From: an uncultured Rivularia sp.
GTDB lineage: Bacteria; Cyanobacteriota; Cyanobacteriia; Cyanobacteriales; Nostocaceae
Length of the DNA: 64,000 nucleotides
Assembly (NCBI GenBank): GCA_963665115.1
Contig: OY762007.1
Location: 2,464,001 to 2,528,000, forward strand
Direction: 5' to 3'
Positions 24,011 through 33,513 of this stretch are shown one piece after another. The notes beneath the pieces were generated by a model. It was not told where the DNA came from. It did not search any database and was given only the letters and a program-made list of their open reading frames with translations. Numbering within the stretch: the stretch's first letter is position 1; the number at the start of each line of letters is the position of its first letter. The translations under genes were made by a program, and so were the position numbers.

Positions 24011-24361
24011 TTATTTAGCTTTGTTTATGTAAGAAATATATTCAACAAAACAAAATCCAGCGACTAAACCAGTAATTACCGCACCAATAATTACTCCTTT
24101 CATTAGACTAAATTTTCTTTGTCTTTTACAGCTTAGAATTAAAGGAATAACGTATAAAAGTTGATATAACCATACAGCACTAATACCGAGAGCAAGAGGT
24201 TCGTATCCTCTACCGAGCGGCAAATTAGAATTATCTGCTAGAAAAGCAAAAAAATACATTCCTAAAATACTAAGAATAAAGTTAGTTGATAATACTAATA
24301 AAATTCCCCCGATAATTGTCAACCAATCGTTACTGCGAGGATTAGGATTTCTGTTTGACAT
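24011..24361 (-). CDS. Small 3-TM membrane protein, paralog B
   Basis: Shares 'QLLYVIP...KRxR...KGVIIGAVITxLVxGxCF' with the neighbouring ORF. Confidence 0.75.
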   Translation of the reverse strand: MSNRNPNPRSNDWLTIIGGILLVLSTNFILSILGMYFFAFLADNSNLPLGRGYEPLALGISAVWLYQLLYVIPLILSCKRQRKFSLMKGVIIGAVITGLVAGFCFVEYISYINKAK

Positions 24362-24373
24362 GGTTTTATTCTG

Positions 24374-24679
24374 TCAACGTATAAATATCAAAAAGCAGCC
24401 ACCATTTACTAACGCTGTAATTACTGCACCAATAATTACTCCTTTTACGATGAAATTATTGCGTTTACGTTTAAGCCAAATACAAACTGGAATTACGTAT
24501 AGCAGTTGCAATAGGAACAATCCGCCAAGCGCAAAGAAAAAACCTAAAATGGTATAGCCACCATAAATCATCTGTAAAATATAGCTAATCACAAATATTA
24601 TTAAGATTGCTAAAGCGTGCATTCCAATTAGTAATAAGAGGCCTTGAATAACTCCCCTAATTTCATTTTGTTGCGACAT
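24374..24679 (-). CDS. Small 3-TM membrane protein, paralog A
   Basis: 'QLLYVIPVCIWLKRKRNNFIVKGVIIGAVITALVNGGCF'; 22 bp downstream of the radical SAM gene. Confidence 0.75.
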   Translation of the reverse strand: MSQQNEIRGVIQGLLLLIGMHALAILIIFVISYILQMIYGGYTILGFFFALGGLFLLQLLYVIPVCIWLKRKRNNFIVKGVIIGAVITALVNGGCFLIFIR

Positions 24680-24701: not shown

Positions 24702-26114
24702 TTAATTCCGATTATTAACTAAATCATACCCCGCGCTACCTTCGCGATAAAACATATTAAAAGTATCAAAAGGAATAATTCTACCGTCGGGGTGTACGAT
24801 GTGAATGCAGGAACGTTTTACCGATCGCACATCAAAGTTAAAAGGATCGAGAAACTGCACAACCATCACCCGAAAGATATTTGAATAATTCAATCCTGCG
24901 GGTACGTTAACCATCGGCAAACAACACAAAAGCTGTTTTAATGAAGTTGCAGCGGAAGCTGGTGAATGACTTGTAGAAAACAACTCAAAAATCTTACTTT
25001 TTAACTCTTCATTCTGTTCGTAAAGTACGCTATTTGGCATCATTTCCACAAACGCTTCCGGATTAACTAATCCAGTTAAAGGTATTACTTTACCATTCAG
25101 TTTCAATGCATATCCCATAGCCAAACAATCGGGATGACAGGGAACCGGAAGAATATCTTCTGGTTTAAAATATGGACTTTGTTCTAAAATAGATCTGCGA
25201 ACTTCTGTAAGCGTATATCTATCAGTTTTCGGGTTAAATCCTGACAATCTTCCCGCAGCTTGTATCGGTTGAAAAGTTACACCGCGAACGCATTTTTGCT
25301 GCAATCCGTATTCGATGATTTTACCGATTTCACCGTCATTTAAACCTTTTTTGACGGTAACAACCAAAGTTGTAGAAATATTATATTTATTTAGTTGCGC
25401 GATCGCCTTTTCTCTGACAATTCGCAAATCCGCTCCCCGCAACTCTTGTAGAGCTTCCGCTTCAAAGCTATCAAACTGTAAATATATCTCAATTCCCGGT
25501 ATATATTGGGAAAGACGCTCGCAAAAAGCTTTATCTTGAGCAATTCTCACACCGTTAGTATTAATCATCAAATGCTTTATCGGTTTGCTTTTGACAATAT
25601 CTAATATTTCAAAAAACTCAGGATGAATAGTAGGCTCACCACCGCTCAACTGCACAATTTGCGGTTCCCCTTCATTTTCTACAACCGCATCAATCATGCT
25701 TTCAATTAGTTTTAAACTGCGATGTTTTCGAGGTTGATGGGAATCCGAAAACTCTTCCACACCAGAATCAGCATAACAAATTGGGCAAGAAAGATTGCAT
25801 TTATCAGTAACTTCGATTAAAGTCAAACAGCTATGTTGTTCGTGATCTGGACAAAGCCCGCAATCGTAAGGACAACCGTATTTTATTGGTGTATTAAACC
25901 GTCTGGGAATATCACCCGGCTTAATAAACTCCAGACACTTTTTATAATATTCAATATCGTCAGCAATTAAAACCTCTTCCCTTCCATGAGTGGGACAATG
26001 TTTAACTAAATAAACATAATCATCCTGAAAAATAATTTTTGCTTCCACCTTAACAAGACACTTTGAACAAACACTATTAGTCAAAGCATAGAAAAGATAA
26101 TTACGACTAGGCAT
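24702..26114 (-). CDS. Radical SAM enzyme, Tes/GDGT-MAS (MJ0619)-like architecture
   Basis: N-terminal CxxC..CxxH ('CSKC...CPTH'), auxiliary 'CPYDCGLCPDH', radical SAM 'CNLSCPIC', 'LSGGEPT', 'NTNG', and C-terminal 'PCHPDC', 'CC', 'SCIH..PF'. Confidence 0.8.
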   Translation of the reverse strand: MPSRNYLFYALTNSVCSKCLVKVEAKIIFQDDYVYLVKHCPTHGREEVLIADDIEYYKKCLEFIKPGDIPRRFNTPIKYGCPYDCGLCPDHEQHSCLTLIEVTDKCNLSCPICYADSGVEEFSDSHQPRKHRSLKLIESMIDAVVENEGEPQIVQLSGGEPTIHPEFFEILDIVKSKPIKHLMINTNGVRIAQDKAFCERLSQYIPGIEIYLQFDSFEAEALQELRGADLRIVREKAIAQLNKYNISTTLVVTVKKGLNDGEIGKIIEYGLQQKCVRGVTFQPIQAAGRLSGFNPKTDRYTLTEVRRSILEQSPYFKPEDILPVPCHPDCLAMGYALKLNGKVIPLTGLVNPEAFVEMMPNSVLYEQNEELKSKIFELFSTSHSPASAATSLKQLLCCLPMVNVPAGLNYSNIFRVMVVQFLDPFNFDVRSVKRSCIHIVHPDGRIIPFDTFNMFYREGSAGYDLVNNRN

Positions 26115-26286
26115 GGATAAAAGTTAGGAGTTAGGAGTTAGGAGTTAGGAGTTGGGGATGGCGCATCGGGCATGGGGCATAGTTAAGAGTTAGGAATTAA
26201 GAGTTAGGAATGTAGTGGGAGCGTCTCGCTCCCTTGAAAAAAATTCCCTGCCCCTCTCCCCCATCTCCCCCTCCCCATCAGCTTCC

Positions 26287-26856
26287 CTACTCCTTCTCCC
26301 CATTTGAGACAAGCTCTGAAAGTATATTTCCGGTCAAATCTAAAAGCTGATCTAGTAATAATCCGATAGCACCAATACAGATTATACCTTCAATAATGTC
26401 ATCAACTTTACTTTGTTTATAAGCATTCCAAATGATAAAACCTAGCCCTTGATTAAGAGTCAACATTTCTATGGCGATCGCACTAAACCAAGCAATCCAA
26501 ACTGCAAATCTTAAACCCTCAAATATATGGTTAATTACTAATCTAAAGTTTCTTCCTTGTTTACGTCCATGTCGTATTCCTTTAGCAGTATTAAGAATAA
26601 TTGACCAAATGGCGCTAAAGAAAACAATTACAATTGCCGCAGCTTCAGCTTCTTTAAAAATGATTAGGGCAATCGGCAGTAAAGCGATAGGAACAATAGT
26701 ATTTGGTACTTGAAGTATCCATTTACATATTTGATAAATAATTCTATTTAAACCAATTAAATAGCCAATCAAAATACCTAAAACAACAGCAGAAATATAG
26801 CCAACAAGTAATAATTGCAAGCTAGATAAAAGATTAAAAAAAATACTTCGTTCCAT
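26287..26856 (-). CDS. Stand-alone ABC permease-like protein (NrtB/TauC/SsuC-type fold)
   Basis: 'SSLQLLLVGY', 'VPIALLPIAL', 'WFSAIAIEML...GLGFIIWNAY...IGLLLD'. Confidence 0.7.
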   Translation of the reverse strand: MERSIFFNLLSSLQLLLVGYISAVVLGILIGYLIGLNRIIYQICKWILQVPNTIVPIALLPIALIIFKEAEAAAIVIVFFSAIWSIILNTAKGIRHGRKQGRNFRLVINHIFEGLRFAVWIAWFSAIAIEMLTLNQGLGFIIWNAYKQSKVDDIIEGIICIGAIGLLLDQLLDLTGNILSELVSNGEKE

Positions 26857-26859
26857 TAT

Positions 26860-27609
26860 TTAAGATTTTATGCGGAACATTTTAGGGATAGTGCGACGAT
26901 AATACAAAATTGCCATGAGACAAGCTGTTTGAATTGCACTTAATCCTAAAAAGGCATGAAAATCTGGTTTAATAAAATCTATCAGGAAGCGAAAGGTTAA
27001 ATAAGAGATGAAATAAAATTGAAATAAATCGCCTTGTTGGTAGTTATAGCGACTGCGAAACCGTATAAATATAGCTAAAACAATTAAAAAAATAATTTCA
27101 TATAGCTGCGTTGGATGTCGTGAAATGCCATCGCCAAAATCTATACCCCAAGGTAAATTGGTCGCAATTCCGTAAGTTTTATCGCTCAAACCAGTTAAAA
27201 AACAGCCAATTCTACCGATAGCAGTTCCCGCAATTAAAGGGTAAACAAATACGTCACCAGTTGACTGCTTGACACCGATAATTTTTTTAGTAATTTCTAC
27301 ACCAATTAATCCACCCAACAAAGCACCGACAACAGTTTTACCCTGCAAAAATAGGAATAAAAATTGTTGTCTATCTTGCCATAATAAATTAATGTGCTGT
27401 AGTAAAACCAGCAACTTCGCACCCAACAAAGCCCCTAACATTCCACCTACAACCACAGAAGAACGTTGAGTCGTAGAAATCGAATCTTGACGAACATTAC
27501 GCAACATCAAACGAAACGCCACAGTATAAGCCAAAGACTCGAATAAAATATGTGGATGAATTTTAAAAAAGCCAAGAGAAATATAAATTGGGAATTGGGA
27601 ATTAGGCAT
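26860..27609 (-). CDS. Prolipoprotein diacylglyceryl transferase (Lgt)-like protein, divergent
   Basis: 'IGRIGCFL', 'LPWGIDF', 'RHPTQLYE', 'YLTFRFLIDF'. Confidence 0.8.
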   Translation of the reverse strand: MPNSQFPIYISLGFFKIHPHILFESLAYTVAFRLMLRNVRQDSISTTQRSSVVVGGMLGALLGAKLLVLLQHINLLWQDRQQFLFLFLQGKTVVGALLGGLIGVEITKKIIGVKQSTGDVFVYPLIAGTAIGRIGCFLTGLSDKTYGIATNLPWGIDFGDGISRHPTQLYEIIFLIVLAIFIRFRSRYNYQQGDLFQFYFISYLTFRFLIDFIKPDFHAFLGLSAIQTACLMAILYYRRTIPKMFRIKS

Positions 27610-28573: not shown

Positions 28574-29707
28574 ATGAAAATAGCAGTATTAGGACATAGA
28601 ACTTTTCCAATTAGCGAACCTTTTGCAGGAGGATTGGAACGTTTTATTTATACATTAGTACGGGGTTTACAGGGCAAAGGATGCGATGTCACTTTGTTTG
28701 CACATCCAGATTCAGATGCAAGTCTTAATATTGCTTCGACTTCTTTTATAGATACTTCTTTTTGTACTACTTCAGAAGAAAAATCCCATGAGTCTTTTTT
28801 GAGCATCATGGATTATTTAGATTACGATGATTTTGATATAGTTCATAATAACTCTTTAAATTATTTTCCTATAGTTCTATCAGATACTATCAATACTCCA
28901 TTAGTAACTACGCTGCATACTCCACCCTTTCCACTACTTTCCAGCGCTGTCAAGCATCGAAAACGAAGAGGGAACTATATTTCTATTTCTAAATTCAACG
29001 CCGAAAGTTGGGGTTTAAATGATGGATTATCAAAAGTAATTTACAACGGTGTAGATGCCGATTTTTTTTCTTTTGCTAACAATAATTCACAAGATTTTGC
29101 AGTTTGGACGGGACGAATTATTCCTTGTAAAGGTACTCATTTAGCAATTGAAGCAGCGAAAAAAGCAAATATAAACTTGGTAATAGCAGGTCCAATTTGC
29201 GATTCCGAATACTTTGAAAAAGAAGTGAAACCTCATTTAAATGAAGGAATACAATATGCGGGACATTTAGGTAAAAATGAACTTGTATCGCTAATACAAA
29301 GCGCTTCCGTATGTTTATGTACGCCTATTTGGGCGGAACCCTTTGGCTTGGTTGTAATTGAAAGTCTGGCTTGCGGTACCCCGGTAGTTGCTTTTAACCG
29401 TGGAGCTATAGCAGAAATTATTGACGAAAATACTGGAATATTAGTAACTCCAGATGATACAGATGCTATGGCACGTGCAATAAAACAGGCTAAATATATT
29501 TCTCGATATGCCTGTAGAGAAAGAGTTCTCAAACATTTCAGTATTGAGGCAATGCTGTCAAATTATTTGCAAGTTTTTGAACGTATAGCAAACACTCGTA
29601 TCAAAAGACAAAAATCATGCACATCGGCTACTACATCCATTCTCACGGCAAGGGGGGACACTTACAAAGGGCGCAGGAAATTGCAAAACACATTAAATCG
29701 GACGTAA
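28574..29707 (+). CDS. Glycosyltransferase family 4 (GT-B)
   Basis: 'FAGGLE', 'VTTLHTP', 'GRIIPCKG', 'EPFGLVVIESLACGTPV'. Confidence 0.88.
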   Translation: MKIAVLGHRTFPISEPFAGGLERFIYTLVRGLQGKGCDVTLFAHPDSDASLNIASTSFIDTSFCTTSEEKSHESFLSIMDYLDYDDFDIVHNNSLNYFPIVLSDTINTPLVTTLHTPPFPLLSSAVKHRKRRGNYISISKFNAESWGLNDGLSKVIYNGVDADFFSFANNNSQDFAVWTGRIIPCKGTHLAIEAAKKANINLVIAGPICDSEYFEKEVKPHLNEGIQYAGHLGKNELVSLIQSASVCLCTPIWAEPFGLVVIESLACGTPVVAFNRGAIAEIIDENTGILVTPDDTDAMARAIKQAKYISRYACRERVLKHFSIEAMLSNYLQVFERIANTRIKRQKSCTSATTSILTARGDTYKGRRKLQNTLNRT

Positions 29708-30726
29708 CTTTTTTAGGAAGCAATCTTTTAAATTCAGATGTTGCAAATAATTTCAATATCGTAGATTTACCTCCCGATGAGATTGAATATGTTCCTAACG
29801 TCGCAATTAACAAAAACTGCGAAACTCTTTCCTTTCACTACGCACCTTACGCAGCTAAAACATATCAGCAGCGAATGTTGAAGTTAGCTCAGTGGGTAGA
29901 AACAACTCAGCCCACATTGGTTGTAGTTGATGTTTCTGCTGAAATAACTCAATATTTTCGGCTTTTGGGAGTACCCGTAATCTCGATGCTTCAACATGGC
30001 GATCGCACTGATTCGGCTCATCTTTGCGGTTACGATGCAGCTTACAAATTACTCGCACCTTATCCCGAATCCTTAGAATCTGATTCTGTACCTTTGTGGA
30101 GAAAGCAAAAAACCATTTACGTTCCCGGTTTTTCGCGTTATTCGGGATATTCTTTGAGTAAATCACAAGCAAGAAAGAATTTAGGAATTACCCAACAGCA
30201 AAAAGTAGTCTTAGTACTCAAAGGAAGAGGAGGAGACAAACATTGTTTGCAGAGCATTTCGGAAGCTGCCTCATTTACTCCAGAATGGCAATGGTTTATA
30301 GTTGGCCCCATAGAGATTAACTGTAATCAATTACCAACAAATATATCTTGCGAAGGATGGCAACAAGACACTTTTCCTTATTTAAAAGCTGCCGACATTG
30401 TAATTGCTTCTGCCGGACATAATACTACAATGGAAATTGCTGAAGCCCAAGTTCCATTTTTATGCATTCCCGAAGAAAGACCTTTTAACGAGCAAAAAGT
30501 CAAGGCAGAATTATTAGAAAATATGGGTTTATGTCTTTGTAGTAATTCATTTCCTACAAATTATTTAGTTAAAAGTACTTTAGAATTATTGATAAAAATG
30601 GATACTTCAAAATGGAAAAATATAGTTTCACCAGATGGAGCTAAAAAAGCTGGAATGGTAATTGAATCAGAAGCTTTCAAAATACAAAATTATCTACTAA
30701 GTAAAACTTATTGTAGGGTGTGTTAA
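29617..30726 (+). CDS. GT-B glycosyltransferase (GT28 C-terminal-like)
   Basis: 'IGYYIHSHGKGGH', 'VVDVSAE', 'AADIVIASAGHNTTMEI', 'PEERPFNEQ'. Confidence 0.8.
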   Translation: MHIGYYIHSHGKGGHLQRAQEIAKHIKSDVTFLGSNLLNSDVANNFNIVDLPPDEIEYVPNVAINKNCETLSFHYAPYAAKTYQQRMLKLAQWVETTQPTLVVVDVSAEITQYFRLLGVPVISMLQHGDRTDSAHLCGYDAAYKLLAPYPESLESDSVPLWRKQKTIYVPGFSRYSGYSLSKSQARKNLGITQQQKVVLVLKGRGGDKHCLQSISEAASFTPEWQWFIVGPIEINCNQLPTNISCEGWQQDTFPYLKAADIVIASAGHNTTMEIAEAQVPFLCIPEERPFNEQKVKAELLENMGLCLCSNSFPTNYLVKSTLELLIKMDTSKWKNIVSPDGAKKAGMVIESEAFKIQNYLLSKTYCRVC

Positions 30727-30868
30727 ATGCACGATTATATTTAACTTACAAACGATAATTTATATTCCGTTTAACGTACCATCCGCGATTAGCCCTAAAT
30801 CACCCTCATTCTGGAAGAGTGTAGCTATAGAAACAAAGCCCAGATGGTGCGTGGGCTAAATTATTTTC

Positions 30869-31717
30869 CTATGAACTCTCTTTTTTAAAACTCTCAATCT
30901 CTTCTTTTGAAGGCAATTTAGTTATTTCAATCTGATTATTTTCTAATTTAATATATCCCAACTCTGCAAACTGTTTCAACCACTTATCCATCGGCAAAAA
31001 ATTCCATTTATCGTAAAAAACTTTCGCGTTTTCTACAATATCCGCCAAATGATTCAATGGAGGAGAATAAGAAGCGTGAAATTGATGATATGCTAAAGCG
31101 CTGATTTTATGAAAAGGAATTTTATGTAGCCGTGCAGTAAACGAAAAATCTGTATCTTCTCCACCGTAGCCAGTAAAACGGGTATCGAATCCGCCGATTT
31201 TAGTAAAAGTCGATTTTCTAATTCCAAAACAAAGCGACCAAAAAAACTCATATTTATGAATAACTCGTTGATTTCCTGCTAATTCTTCACCCTGGAGTTG
31301 GTGTGGTGCAGAATCAAAATTCAGCGTTTCAAAAGTCCATTGTTTGCGCCATTGAGAATGTAAATAACGAATTGAACCTTGATAAAGTGCATCTTCTTGC
31401 TCGAGATGATAAGTAAAGGTTTTAACTAAATCAGGATGAGGAATACAATCAACATCTAAAAAGATTAAAAAATGACCATTCGCAATTGAAGAAGCTTTCG
31501 TGCGTGCTGCGGCTAAAGGTAATTTATGAAGAGAATTAATTACAGAAGACTTAATTTTGAAAGGTGTCGGTGGTAATTCAGGAAGAGAATCATTCATGCA
31601 TATAACGACAAGTTCCGAAGGATGCATTTTTGACTGAATCAAACCTTCAACTAAATTCTGTAAATGCGAAGTTCTTTGAGAGTAGAGCGTGCAAACTGAT
31701 ATTTTATGGTTTGTCAT
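30869..31717 (-). CDS. Glycosyltransferase family 2 / galactosyltransferase-like (GT-A)
   Basis: 'LPLAAAR', 'IFLDVDCIP' (DxD), 'FWSLCF', 'GGFD..FTGYGGEDTDF', 'HQFH'. Confidence 0.85.
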   Translation of the reverse strand: MTNHKISVCTLYSQRTSHLQNLVEGLIQSKMHPSELVVICMNDSLPELPPTPFKIKSSVINSLHKLPLAAARTKASSIANGHFLIFLDVDCIPHPDLVKTFTYHLEQEDALYQGSIRYLHSQWRKQWTFETLNFDSAPHQLQGEELAGNQRVIHKYEFFWSLCFGIRKSTFTKIGGFDTRFTGYGGEDTDFSFTARLHKIPFHKISALAYHQFHASYSPPLNHLADIVENAKVFYDKWNFLPMDKWLKQFAELGYIKLENNQIEITKLPSKEEIESFKKESS

Positions 31718-33149: not shown

Positions 33150-33266
33150 TGCTGTAATCCCGATAATGCAACGATAGATTTAGTTTTCCCAAAATTTAAT
33201 CGCATCTAACAGTAAGCAGTTATCAGTGAACAGTTATCAGTGAACAGTTATCAGTTATCAGTGATT

Positions 33267-33513
33267 CTTGAAATGGGACTGCGAGCATCTTGCTCGCTAC
33301 CACTGATGGAGCTTGAAATGGGACTGCGAGCATCTTGCTCGCTTCCACTGATGGAGCTTGAAATGGTAGTGCGAGCATCTTGCTCGCTACCACTGATGGA
33401 GCTTGAAATGGTAGTGCGAGCATCTTGCTCGCTAGCTACCACCAACAAAGCGAGTGACTGAGTTATTTCATTCAACTGGGCGAGTGACCGAGCGAGCAAG
33501 ATGCTCGCACTAC
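33267..33513. repeat. 45-bp tandem repeat (~4 units) of a REP hairpin plus one inverted REP copy
   Basis: Unit CTTGAAATGG(G/T)A(C/G)TGCGAGCATCTTGCTCGCTACCACTGATGGAG; inverted AGCGAGCAAGATGCTCGCACTAC at 33491-33513. Confidence 0.85.

Follow-up and report, generated by a model that had tools for sequence, protein, structure and literature searches.

The closest described relative of the radical SAM protein reported here is the archaeal GDGT-MAS, or Tes (MJ0619; PDB 7TOL and 7TOM). The ligands of its rubredoxin site and N-terminal cluster are named in PMC9433317 (Lloyd et al.), where Tyr459 is also given as conserved in archaeal GDGT-MAS homologues and dispensable in vitro; the C-terminal cluster is described as bound by three cysteines and a methionine (PMC13459092). 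Bacterial homologues of Tes have been known since 2022, when 456 of them were collected and proposed to make brGDGTs (PMC8941075), and the function of these bacterial relatives has been an open question ever since (PMC9433317; PMC8941075). The second relevant system is the prolipoprotein pathway. In E. coli Lgt, residues Y26, H103, R143, N146, G154 and R239 are essential (10.1101/2025.03.27.645668), R143, Y235 and R239 line the lipid cavity (PMC4728403; 10.1101/2025.03.27.645668), and the cavity opens to the periplasmic side, where the lipobox cysteine sits (PMC4728403). The substitutions Y26H and N146C were found in M. smegmatis MSMEG_5408 (10.1101/2025.03.27.645668), which is suspected of residual or redundant Lgt activity (10.1101/2025.01.07.631728).

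Analysis of the window (the whole 64,000-nt stretch of Rivularia DNA) revealed a module consisting of a Tes-like radical SAM enzyme, a second Lgt, and small membrane proteins with one cysteine (Table 1). The enzyme module is real, widespread and uncharacterised, each part of the trio belongs to a known fold, and the enzyme is not a tetraether synthase; the function discussed below is proposed from comparison. No description of the trio was found in the literature searched, where subscription papers and supplements were thinly covered, and the accessible parts of 10.64898/2026.02.09.704826 and 10.64898/2026.09.04.749484 added nothing on the trio or on the function of TrsS, a related protein. 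The earlier note, which had singled out the radical SAM gene, overlooked both of its partners, the second Lgt and the small proteins with a cysteine.

Table 1. Features of the module in the window.
Feature	Position	Strand	Remarks
Small membrane protein 2, paralogue of protein 1	24011..24361	-	116 aa; last helix ends L-V-A-G-F-C104-F
Small membrane protein 1	24374..24679	-	101 aa, ~3 helices; 22 nt behind the enzyme
Radical SAM enzyme, GDGT-MAS/Tes fold (IPR034474-type), Lgt-linked bacterial subfamily	24702..26114	-	470 aa
Remodelled C-terminal metal site	24765..25139	-	C326/C397/C398/C436/H438 and D/E450 family-invariant; conservation
Canonical radical SAM motif C106/C110/C113	25776..25799	-	alignment
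N-terminal auxiliary [4Fe-4S] site C81/C85/C88/H91	25842..25874	-	MJ0619 C73/C77/C80 + His; alignment
Rubredoxin-like site C16/C19/C40/H43	25986..26069	-	MJ0619 C9/C12/C33/H36; alignment, Pfam PF23545
NtrB/SsuC-like ABC permease, between Lgt and enzyme	26287..26856	-	PF00528
Lgt paralogue	26860..27609	-	249 aa; PF01790 103 bits, cut-off 24.9

All motifs quoted in the earlier note are present in the enzyme ORF: CxxC-x20-CxxH (C16-x2-C19-x20-C40-x2-H43), CxxxCxxCxxH (C81-x3-C85-x2-C88-x2-H91), CxxxCxxC (C106-x3-C110-x2-C113), PCHPDC (P325-C-H-P-D-C330), CC (C397-C398) and SCIH (S435-C-I-H438). The protein has no transmembrane helices (19-residue hydropathy maximum 1.1). Homologues were aligned as 77 sequences, comprising the window protein (P0001) and 76 near full-length ORFs from the best 80 of 585 loci; four of the 80 loci were dropped, their ORFs being fragmentary or frameshifted. 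The ligands of the rubredoxin, N-terminal cluster and radical SAM sites, as well as C326, C397, C398, C436 and H438, are invariant in 77/77 sequences, and the motifs are therefore not due to chance; position 330 is variable (53 sequences have C, 15 have S and nine have A). Residues 91-96 of P0001 (HEQHSC) are invariant too. C96 is common in TrsS-type relatives and is V, A or G in Tes; judging by the alignment, it may mark a non-Tes chemistry.

Among the matches listed from the best 80 of 585 loci, the nearest named homologue belongs to Rivularia sp. (93% identical), in keeping with a cyanobacterial genome. Homologues with 56-70% identity in the best 80 of 585 loci come from Bacillaceae, Paenibacillaceae, Flavobacteriaceae and Acidobacteriaceae, the family being common in the last of these. 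Within the genus, the gene is present in just 9 of 27 genomes and is thus accessory or dispensable. Two of the nine contain it split over two frames (G278:C1:2348028-2349441 and G279:C1:845131-846672), by frameshift or assembly error. Short heptamer tandem repeats lie just 5' of the enzyme start (window 26121-26200); we take them to be of a type common in heterocystous cyanobacteria. The scan for promoters and terminators stayed at chance level (13 found against 16.5 expected). Elsewhere in the window, a tandem repeat of ~45 nt (33240-33499) gives repetitive ORFs on both strands, and three adjacent ORFs on the plus strand (28574-31717) were judged by eye to be glycosyltransferase-like.

The closest solved structure to the enzyme is 7TOL (best PDB match, E 3e-62). 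An AlphaFold2 model built from 67 sequences (pLDDT 80, pTM 0.84; pLDDT below 50 at residues 375-406) superposes on 7TOM with Z 43.4 and rmsd 2.4 over 402 residues at 32% identity, the next family reaching Z 20. The GDGT-MAS-type fold and domain order supposed in the earlier note are thus confirmed. Of the SAM contacts of GDGT-MAS, R210, Q268, R275, Y195 and D199 are kept (R226, Q282, R289, Y211 and D215 in the window enzyme), and S271 is replaced by Q.

The Tes-type architecture of the metal sites, also claimed in the earlier note, holds for the three N-terminal sites, which map one to one, and not for the C-terminal cysteines, most of which are not conserved in Tes. When aligned to MJ0619 as that note had proposed, the C-terminal cysteines mostly fail to fall on the presumed Tes ligands, the outcome it had named as speaking against its reading, while the N-terminal ones do map. 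For this comparison 67 family members were set against 121 Tes-type proteins, namely P0267, P0270 and 119 matches of P0270; P0267 and P0270 both exceed the Tes cut-off, and the matches of P0270 are, where named, mostly Bathyarchaeia, which makes the sample narrow. In the C-terminal part, 121/121 Tes homologues share three cysteines and a methionine (MJ0619 C338, C455, C470 and M439), and this conservation, taken together with the description of a ligand set of three cysteines and a methionine (PMC13459092), suggests that C338, C455 and C470 bind the C-terminal cluster. Their columns correspond to enzyme positions 330, 435 and 450, where the window protein reads C330, S435 and D450. Among the 67 family members, position 330 is C in 44, S in 14 and A in nine, and a cysteine at 435 (S, T or A) or at 450 (D or E) occurs in none. 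The column of Met439 is position 419 (M in 40, V in 27; V419 in the window protein), and that of Tyr459 is I439 in 66 of 67. Polar residues including H94, C96, E209 and T248 are invariant in the family and not in Tes.

The region of the presumed lipid pockets differs as well. Ahead of the FxD motif, 111 of 119 measurable Tes proteins have a stretch of 116 residues, and 43 of 45 measurable family members one of 95; the 21-residue Tes segment absent from the family lies in a helical region presumed to make up the second lipid pocket. Of the hydrophobic Tes columns, the family retains 63 of 81 in the barrel and 29 of 62 at positions 291-412, a part in which the alignment is unsure and which includes the poorly modelled residues 375-406. 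In a quick IQ-TREE phylogeny (57 rows, midpoint root; rows P0124 and P0418 poorly trimmed), Tes forms one group (SH-aLRT 98), Tes and TrsS group together (99), and the enzyme family with four of five Lgt fusions lies beyond a branch of support 100 from Tes/TrsS.

Identity with Tes was therefore rejected: the enzyme scores 277.2 bits, below the NF045702 equivalog cut-off of 450, falls into a separate clade and lacks two of the three Tes-invariant C-terminal cysteines. Its best NCBIfam match is TrsS (NF045646, 313.3 bits over almost the whole length), which was rejected likewise, as the score is below the cut-off of 490 and the clade is separate. Since score, C-terminal ligands, deletion and clade all differ, we regard the enzyme as a Tes paralogue with a rebuilt C-terminal site; the four invariant cysteines there suggest that it may still bind a C-terminal Fe-S cluster. 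The different substrate anticipated in the earlier note appears right, in that one other than the archaeal lipid is likely.

The enzyme is linked to an Lgt paralogue, which lies no more than 5 kb away in 71 of the best 80 of 585 loci, spanning Cyanobacteriota, Bacillota, Acidobacteriota, Bacteroidota and Planctomycetota. Of the nine loci without a nearby paralogue, five end at a contig edge, and for the other four a paralogue-type match exists at another site of the genome. In a sample of 251 genomes from the phylum, 20 contain the enzyme, 20 the paralogue and 19 both, kin among them not being independent; in four of the 19 the two genes are on different contigs or far apart, and one genome (G004, 95% complete) has the enzyme without the paralogue. 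Moreover, 29 long proteins match the profile of the paralogue, and in 22 of them, as also in P0124, Lgt, Zn-ribbon and radical SAM domains are fused. A Cys-Cys pair is found in the linker right after the Lgt domain of fusion proteins P0124, P0394 and P0402. Genome G225 (L089, G225:C3:3575000-3581000) contains a decayed module in the same gene context as in the window: the Lgt paralogue is intact, the enzyme is reduced to a 24-residue remnant after it, and small proteins were not found there. Beyond the enzyme and Lgt, each genuine gene family occurs in at most 15 of the best 80 of 585 loci, the larger clusters being shadow frames. The ABC permease, which among the loci listed occupies this position in L001 and L002, was rejected as a module member and is likely a passenger, Lgt ending less than 200 nt from the enzyme in 56 of the best 80 of 585 loci. 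All three parts are present in 68 of the best 80 of 585 loci, the small proteins being recognised by a rule or profile drawn from these same loci.

The host genome contains two Lgt genes, the housekeeping one and the paralogue, which is located two places upstream of the enzyme. The model of the paralogue matches 5AZB (Foldseek E 2e-7, TM 0.59), its TIGR00544 score (59 bits) is below the equivalog cut-off of 118.9, and the 13-residue Lgt motif is incomplete. In E. coli numbering, R143, G154, the HPxQxYE motif, Y235 and R239 are kept, and the substitutions are Y26H, H103V, N146C, E151D, E243D and R246K. In the alignment of 55 paralogues (the window copy and 54 of the 70 copies from the best 80 of 585 loci), R143, G154, Y235 and R239 are likewise kept, and Y26 is replaced by H, H103 by an aliphatic residue, N146 by C and E151 by D; C136 is invariant (55/55) and H20 nearly so.

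Small protein 1 has a basic KRKR loop followed by a helix ending L-V-N-G-G-C95-F and is a candidate lipid acceptor; it has no Pfam or NCBIfam family, and its Atlas neighbours are unnamed cyanobacterial clusters. In both small proteins of the window the cysteine is near the C-terminus, unlike the N-terminal signal peptide of a canonical lipoprotein. It follows basic residues and a hydrophobic helix, at what the positive-inside rule predicts to be the outer end. Among small hydrophobic ORFs, a basic-helix-Cys segment occurs in 70 of the 113 that adjoin the enzyme-Lgt pair versus 9 of the 123 further away, and a small cysteine protein, by rule or profile, in 74 of the best 80 of 585 loci, these counts being partly circular because rule and profiles were drawn from the same loci. 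Two of the six loci without such a protein have the Lgt paralogue and 5 kb of room on both sides. The profile of the C-terminal type matches 8 of the 251 phylum genomes, all within the 19 two-gene carriers.

In 40 hand-picked proteins of this type the cysteine is invariant, partly by selection. The canonical lipobox ([LVI][ASTVI][GAS]C) occurs in two of the 40; position +2 is aromatic (F, W or Y) in 37 of them, S, G, T, Q and N being dominant there in 45 lipoprotein-like ORFs of the host. In the aligned set 6-17 residues follow the cysteine (40/40), the tail is poorly conserved beyond +3, and little is common apart from the helix and the cysteine. Plain signal-peptide-plus-Cys proteins are encoded in cassettes L015, L022, L087, L088, L090, L093 and L099; in the regions inspected in 12 genomes, they lie beside the genes in G082, G019, G004, G013 and G028, and no candidate was found in the stretches examined of G231, G070 and G052. 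Complex prediction for the Lgt paralogue and small protein 1 scored 0.09 against a mark of 0.32, which speaks neither for nor against an interaction.

The small proteins vary between lineages. In some Paenibacillaceae (L067:16-297, L068:3903-4172, L075, L077-L079) a small cysteine protein is encoded upstream of Lgt; its N-terminus is a Cys/His-rich (B-box-like) metal-binding domain, followed by a single helix. In Acidobacteriaceae (L015-L023) up to five consecutive small cysteine proteins are encoded in the interval from Lgt to the enzyme; their cysteine follows the first helix and not the last. In L027 a run of N gives the false appearance of a fusion of the enzyme with a small protein. A 3-oxoacyl-ACP synthase III-like ORF, named by eye, follows the enzyme in G019 (L088:3413-4405), alone among the loci of the 12 genomes.

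As the enzyme lacks the C-terminal cysteines of Tes and travels with a spare Lgt and small cysteine proteins, an undescribed pathway for anchoring small proteins by an unusual lipid is likely. From fold, motifs, linkage, fusion and cysteine placement we infer a private protein-lipidation line in which the enzyme would tailor a phospholipid and the Lgt paralogue transfer the product to the small-protein cysteine; the proposal has, in our opinion, an even chance of being right. First, the cytoplasmic enzyme would take up a phospholipid, probably phosphatidylglycerol, and abstract a hydrogen from an acyl tail, and the re-liganded C-terminal Fe-S cluster would finish the modification, most plausibly by tail-to-tail C-C coupling giving a ring or a dimer. 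Second, the Lgt paralogue would accept the altered donor, recognise a non-standard box (L-N-G/A-A/G-C-aromatic) and pass the donor's diacylglyceryl moiety on to the cysteine that caps the helix on its outer side. Third, signal peptidase II may then free a short lipopeptide. The enzyme is soluble and depends on SAM and a reductant, while the cysteine is predicted to face outward; for this reason tailoring is assumed to precede transfer.

The proposal is supported by a fold and a SAM site like those of an enzyme acting on lipid tails, by the retention of R143, Y235 and R239 in the paralogue, and by the occurrence of Y26H and N146C in MSMEG_5408 with its suspected residual Lgt activity. Against it weigh the loss of the Tes ligands for the C-C-coupling cluster and the shortened second-pocket region, the absence from the paralogue of Y26, H103 and N146, essential in E. 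coli Lgt, the rarity of the canonical lipobox, and the six of the best 80 of 585 loci without a small cysteine protein. Within private lipidation, tail coupling is the preferred chemistry by homology, but its prospects are about evenly balanced, since the catalytic cluster site is changed. The full claim that in at least five phyla, oxygenic cyanobacteria included, a Tes-fold enzyme makes a tail-coupled (ring or membrane-spanning) phospholipid which a dedicated Lgt fixes to small proteins is put forward tentatively, as something that would be somewhat surprising.

Several other functions could be suggested for the module. First, the small protein could be the precursor of a RiPP-like lipopeptide, the enzyme modifying the peptide (for example, by a crosslink with the aromatic residue beside the cysteine) and the paralogue adding an ordinary diacylglyceryl group. 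The short tails, the aromatic +2 residue, the remodelled pocket region of the enzyme and two or more precursor-like copies at many loci agree with this. However, the tail is variable beyond +3 and predicted to face outward, and in members of the signal-peptide type it is a long, soluble stretch; the fold resembles GDGT-MAS (Z 43) far more than SuiB or SkfB (Z 17-19); and the enzyme has no SPASM/twitch or PqqD-type Pfam family and weak NCBIfam barrel matches, though absence from such scans is compatible with peptide substrates. We consider this reading rather unlikely.

Second, the paralogue might not be a classic Lgt: its Cys136 together with His20 could bind a lipid or acyl group covalently as an intermediate, and the small protein might transiently ferry a radical-made lipid product across the membrane to another acceptor, in analogy to the DltX peptide and D-alanine. 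The conservation of C136 and H20, the aliphatic residue at position 103 and small proteins alike only in helix and cysteine would fit such a shuttle, but it would need an acceptor transferase, and no conserved fourth gene was found, as stated above for the best 80 of 585 loci. The odds are clearly against it.

Third, the enzyme could be a bulk synthase of membrane-spanning lipids, joining membrane fatty-acyl tails like Tes or Mss, with its neighbours accessory. The fold shared with GDGT-MAS, the frequency of the family in Acidobacteriaceae and the proposed role of bacterial Tes homologues in brGDGT synthesis (PMC8941075) point this way. Yet the enzyme is below the Tes cut-off, outside the Tes clade and different in its C-terminal ligands, its gene is dispensable (9/27), and the co-occurrence and fusion with Lgt would be left unexplained. 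In addition, under strict thresholds Tes homologues were reported from 3 of 14 iso-diabolic-acid-producing Acidobacteria and from none of the other producers (PMC13159169), and in Solibacter, which produces brGDGTs, a far closer homologue of Tes is present (40%, E 1e-139; 10.1101/2022.04.07.487437). This makes bulk synthesis improbable. Finally, action on a lipid head group or a small molecule, or maturation of a residue of the Lgt paralogue, is the most improbable reading: the fold is not tied to lipid tails, because TrsS, sister to Tes, shares the architecture and has different gene partners, and the polar residues invariant in the family and not in Tes allow for another chemistry, but the small cysteine proteins would be unaccounted for and the Lgt cavity opens periplasmically (PMC4728403), away from a soluble cytoplasmic enzyme.

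Oxygen sensitivity, from which the earlier note had argued for another substrate or microoxic expression, is a weak argument, because the host genome has 26 radical SAM matches, of which 24 are over the Pfam cut-off, and the gene is also present in two photosynthetic genomes (G093 and G231) with reaction-centre genes and no nifH over the cut-off. Microoxic expression is possible in the host, where nifH is in two halves (model positions 1-123 and 128-262) ~3.6 kb apart (G000:C1:4136816-4141166), an arrangement that a heterocyst-type excision element would probably explain. Near the split nifH, the radical SAM gene at 4132513 is likely nifB. Restriction of the enzyme to heterocysts or microoxic conditions was rejected as a requirement across the family, given G093 and G231 and the homologues from Bacillaceae, Paenibacillaceae, Flavobacteriaceae and Acidobacteriaceae.

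Under the preferred reading, private lipidation of small proteins, a large Tes-like subfamily gains named partners and a candidate substrate, and the question of its function therefore becomes testable with three short genes. The second Lgt type (Y26H/N146C), noted earlier without a role, likewise gains a candidate one. If the anchor is indeed tail-coupled, it would represent a new class of protein lipid anchor, protein-bound, scarce and missed by bulk lipid surveys. For geochemists, a loose Tes homologue with such features is not evidence of tetraether or brGDGT production.

Compared with known systems, the enzyme has in common with GDGT-MAS the four-domain fold and domain order and, one to one, the rubredoxin CxxC-x20-CxxH, the N-terminal cluster of three cysteines and a histidine, and the CxxxCxxC ligands; unlike Tes, its family has invariant C326, C397, C398 and C436 and is linked or fused to Lgt. 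TrsS, a radical SAM (seleno)protein of unknown function that appears as a table row alone in the accessible part of PMC13188914, has the same N-terminal sites, but groups with Tes (99% SH-aLRT) and has a methyltransferase and DUF5714 as fusion partners. Mss of Thermoanaerobacter and Thermotoga, compared here by description only, is remotely related to Tes and known from anaerobes (PMC13159169); its radical SAM coupling of bacterial fatty-acyl tails provides a precedent for the first step of the proposed mechanism. Finally, the paralogue shares Pfam family and fold with E. coli Lgt (5AZB/5AZC; PF01790), and differs from the classic lipoprotein pathway in being a second copy whose acceptor box is non-canonical and often C-terminal in a protein of several helices, and in being coupled to a radical SAM enzyme.
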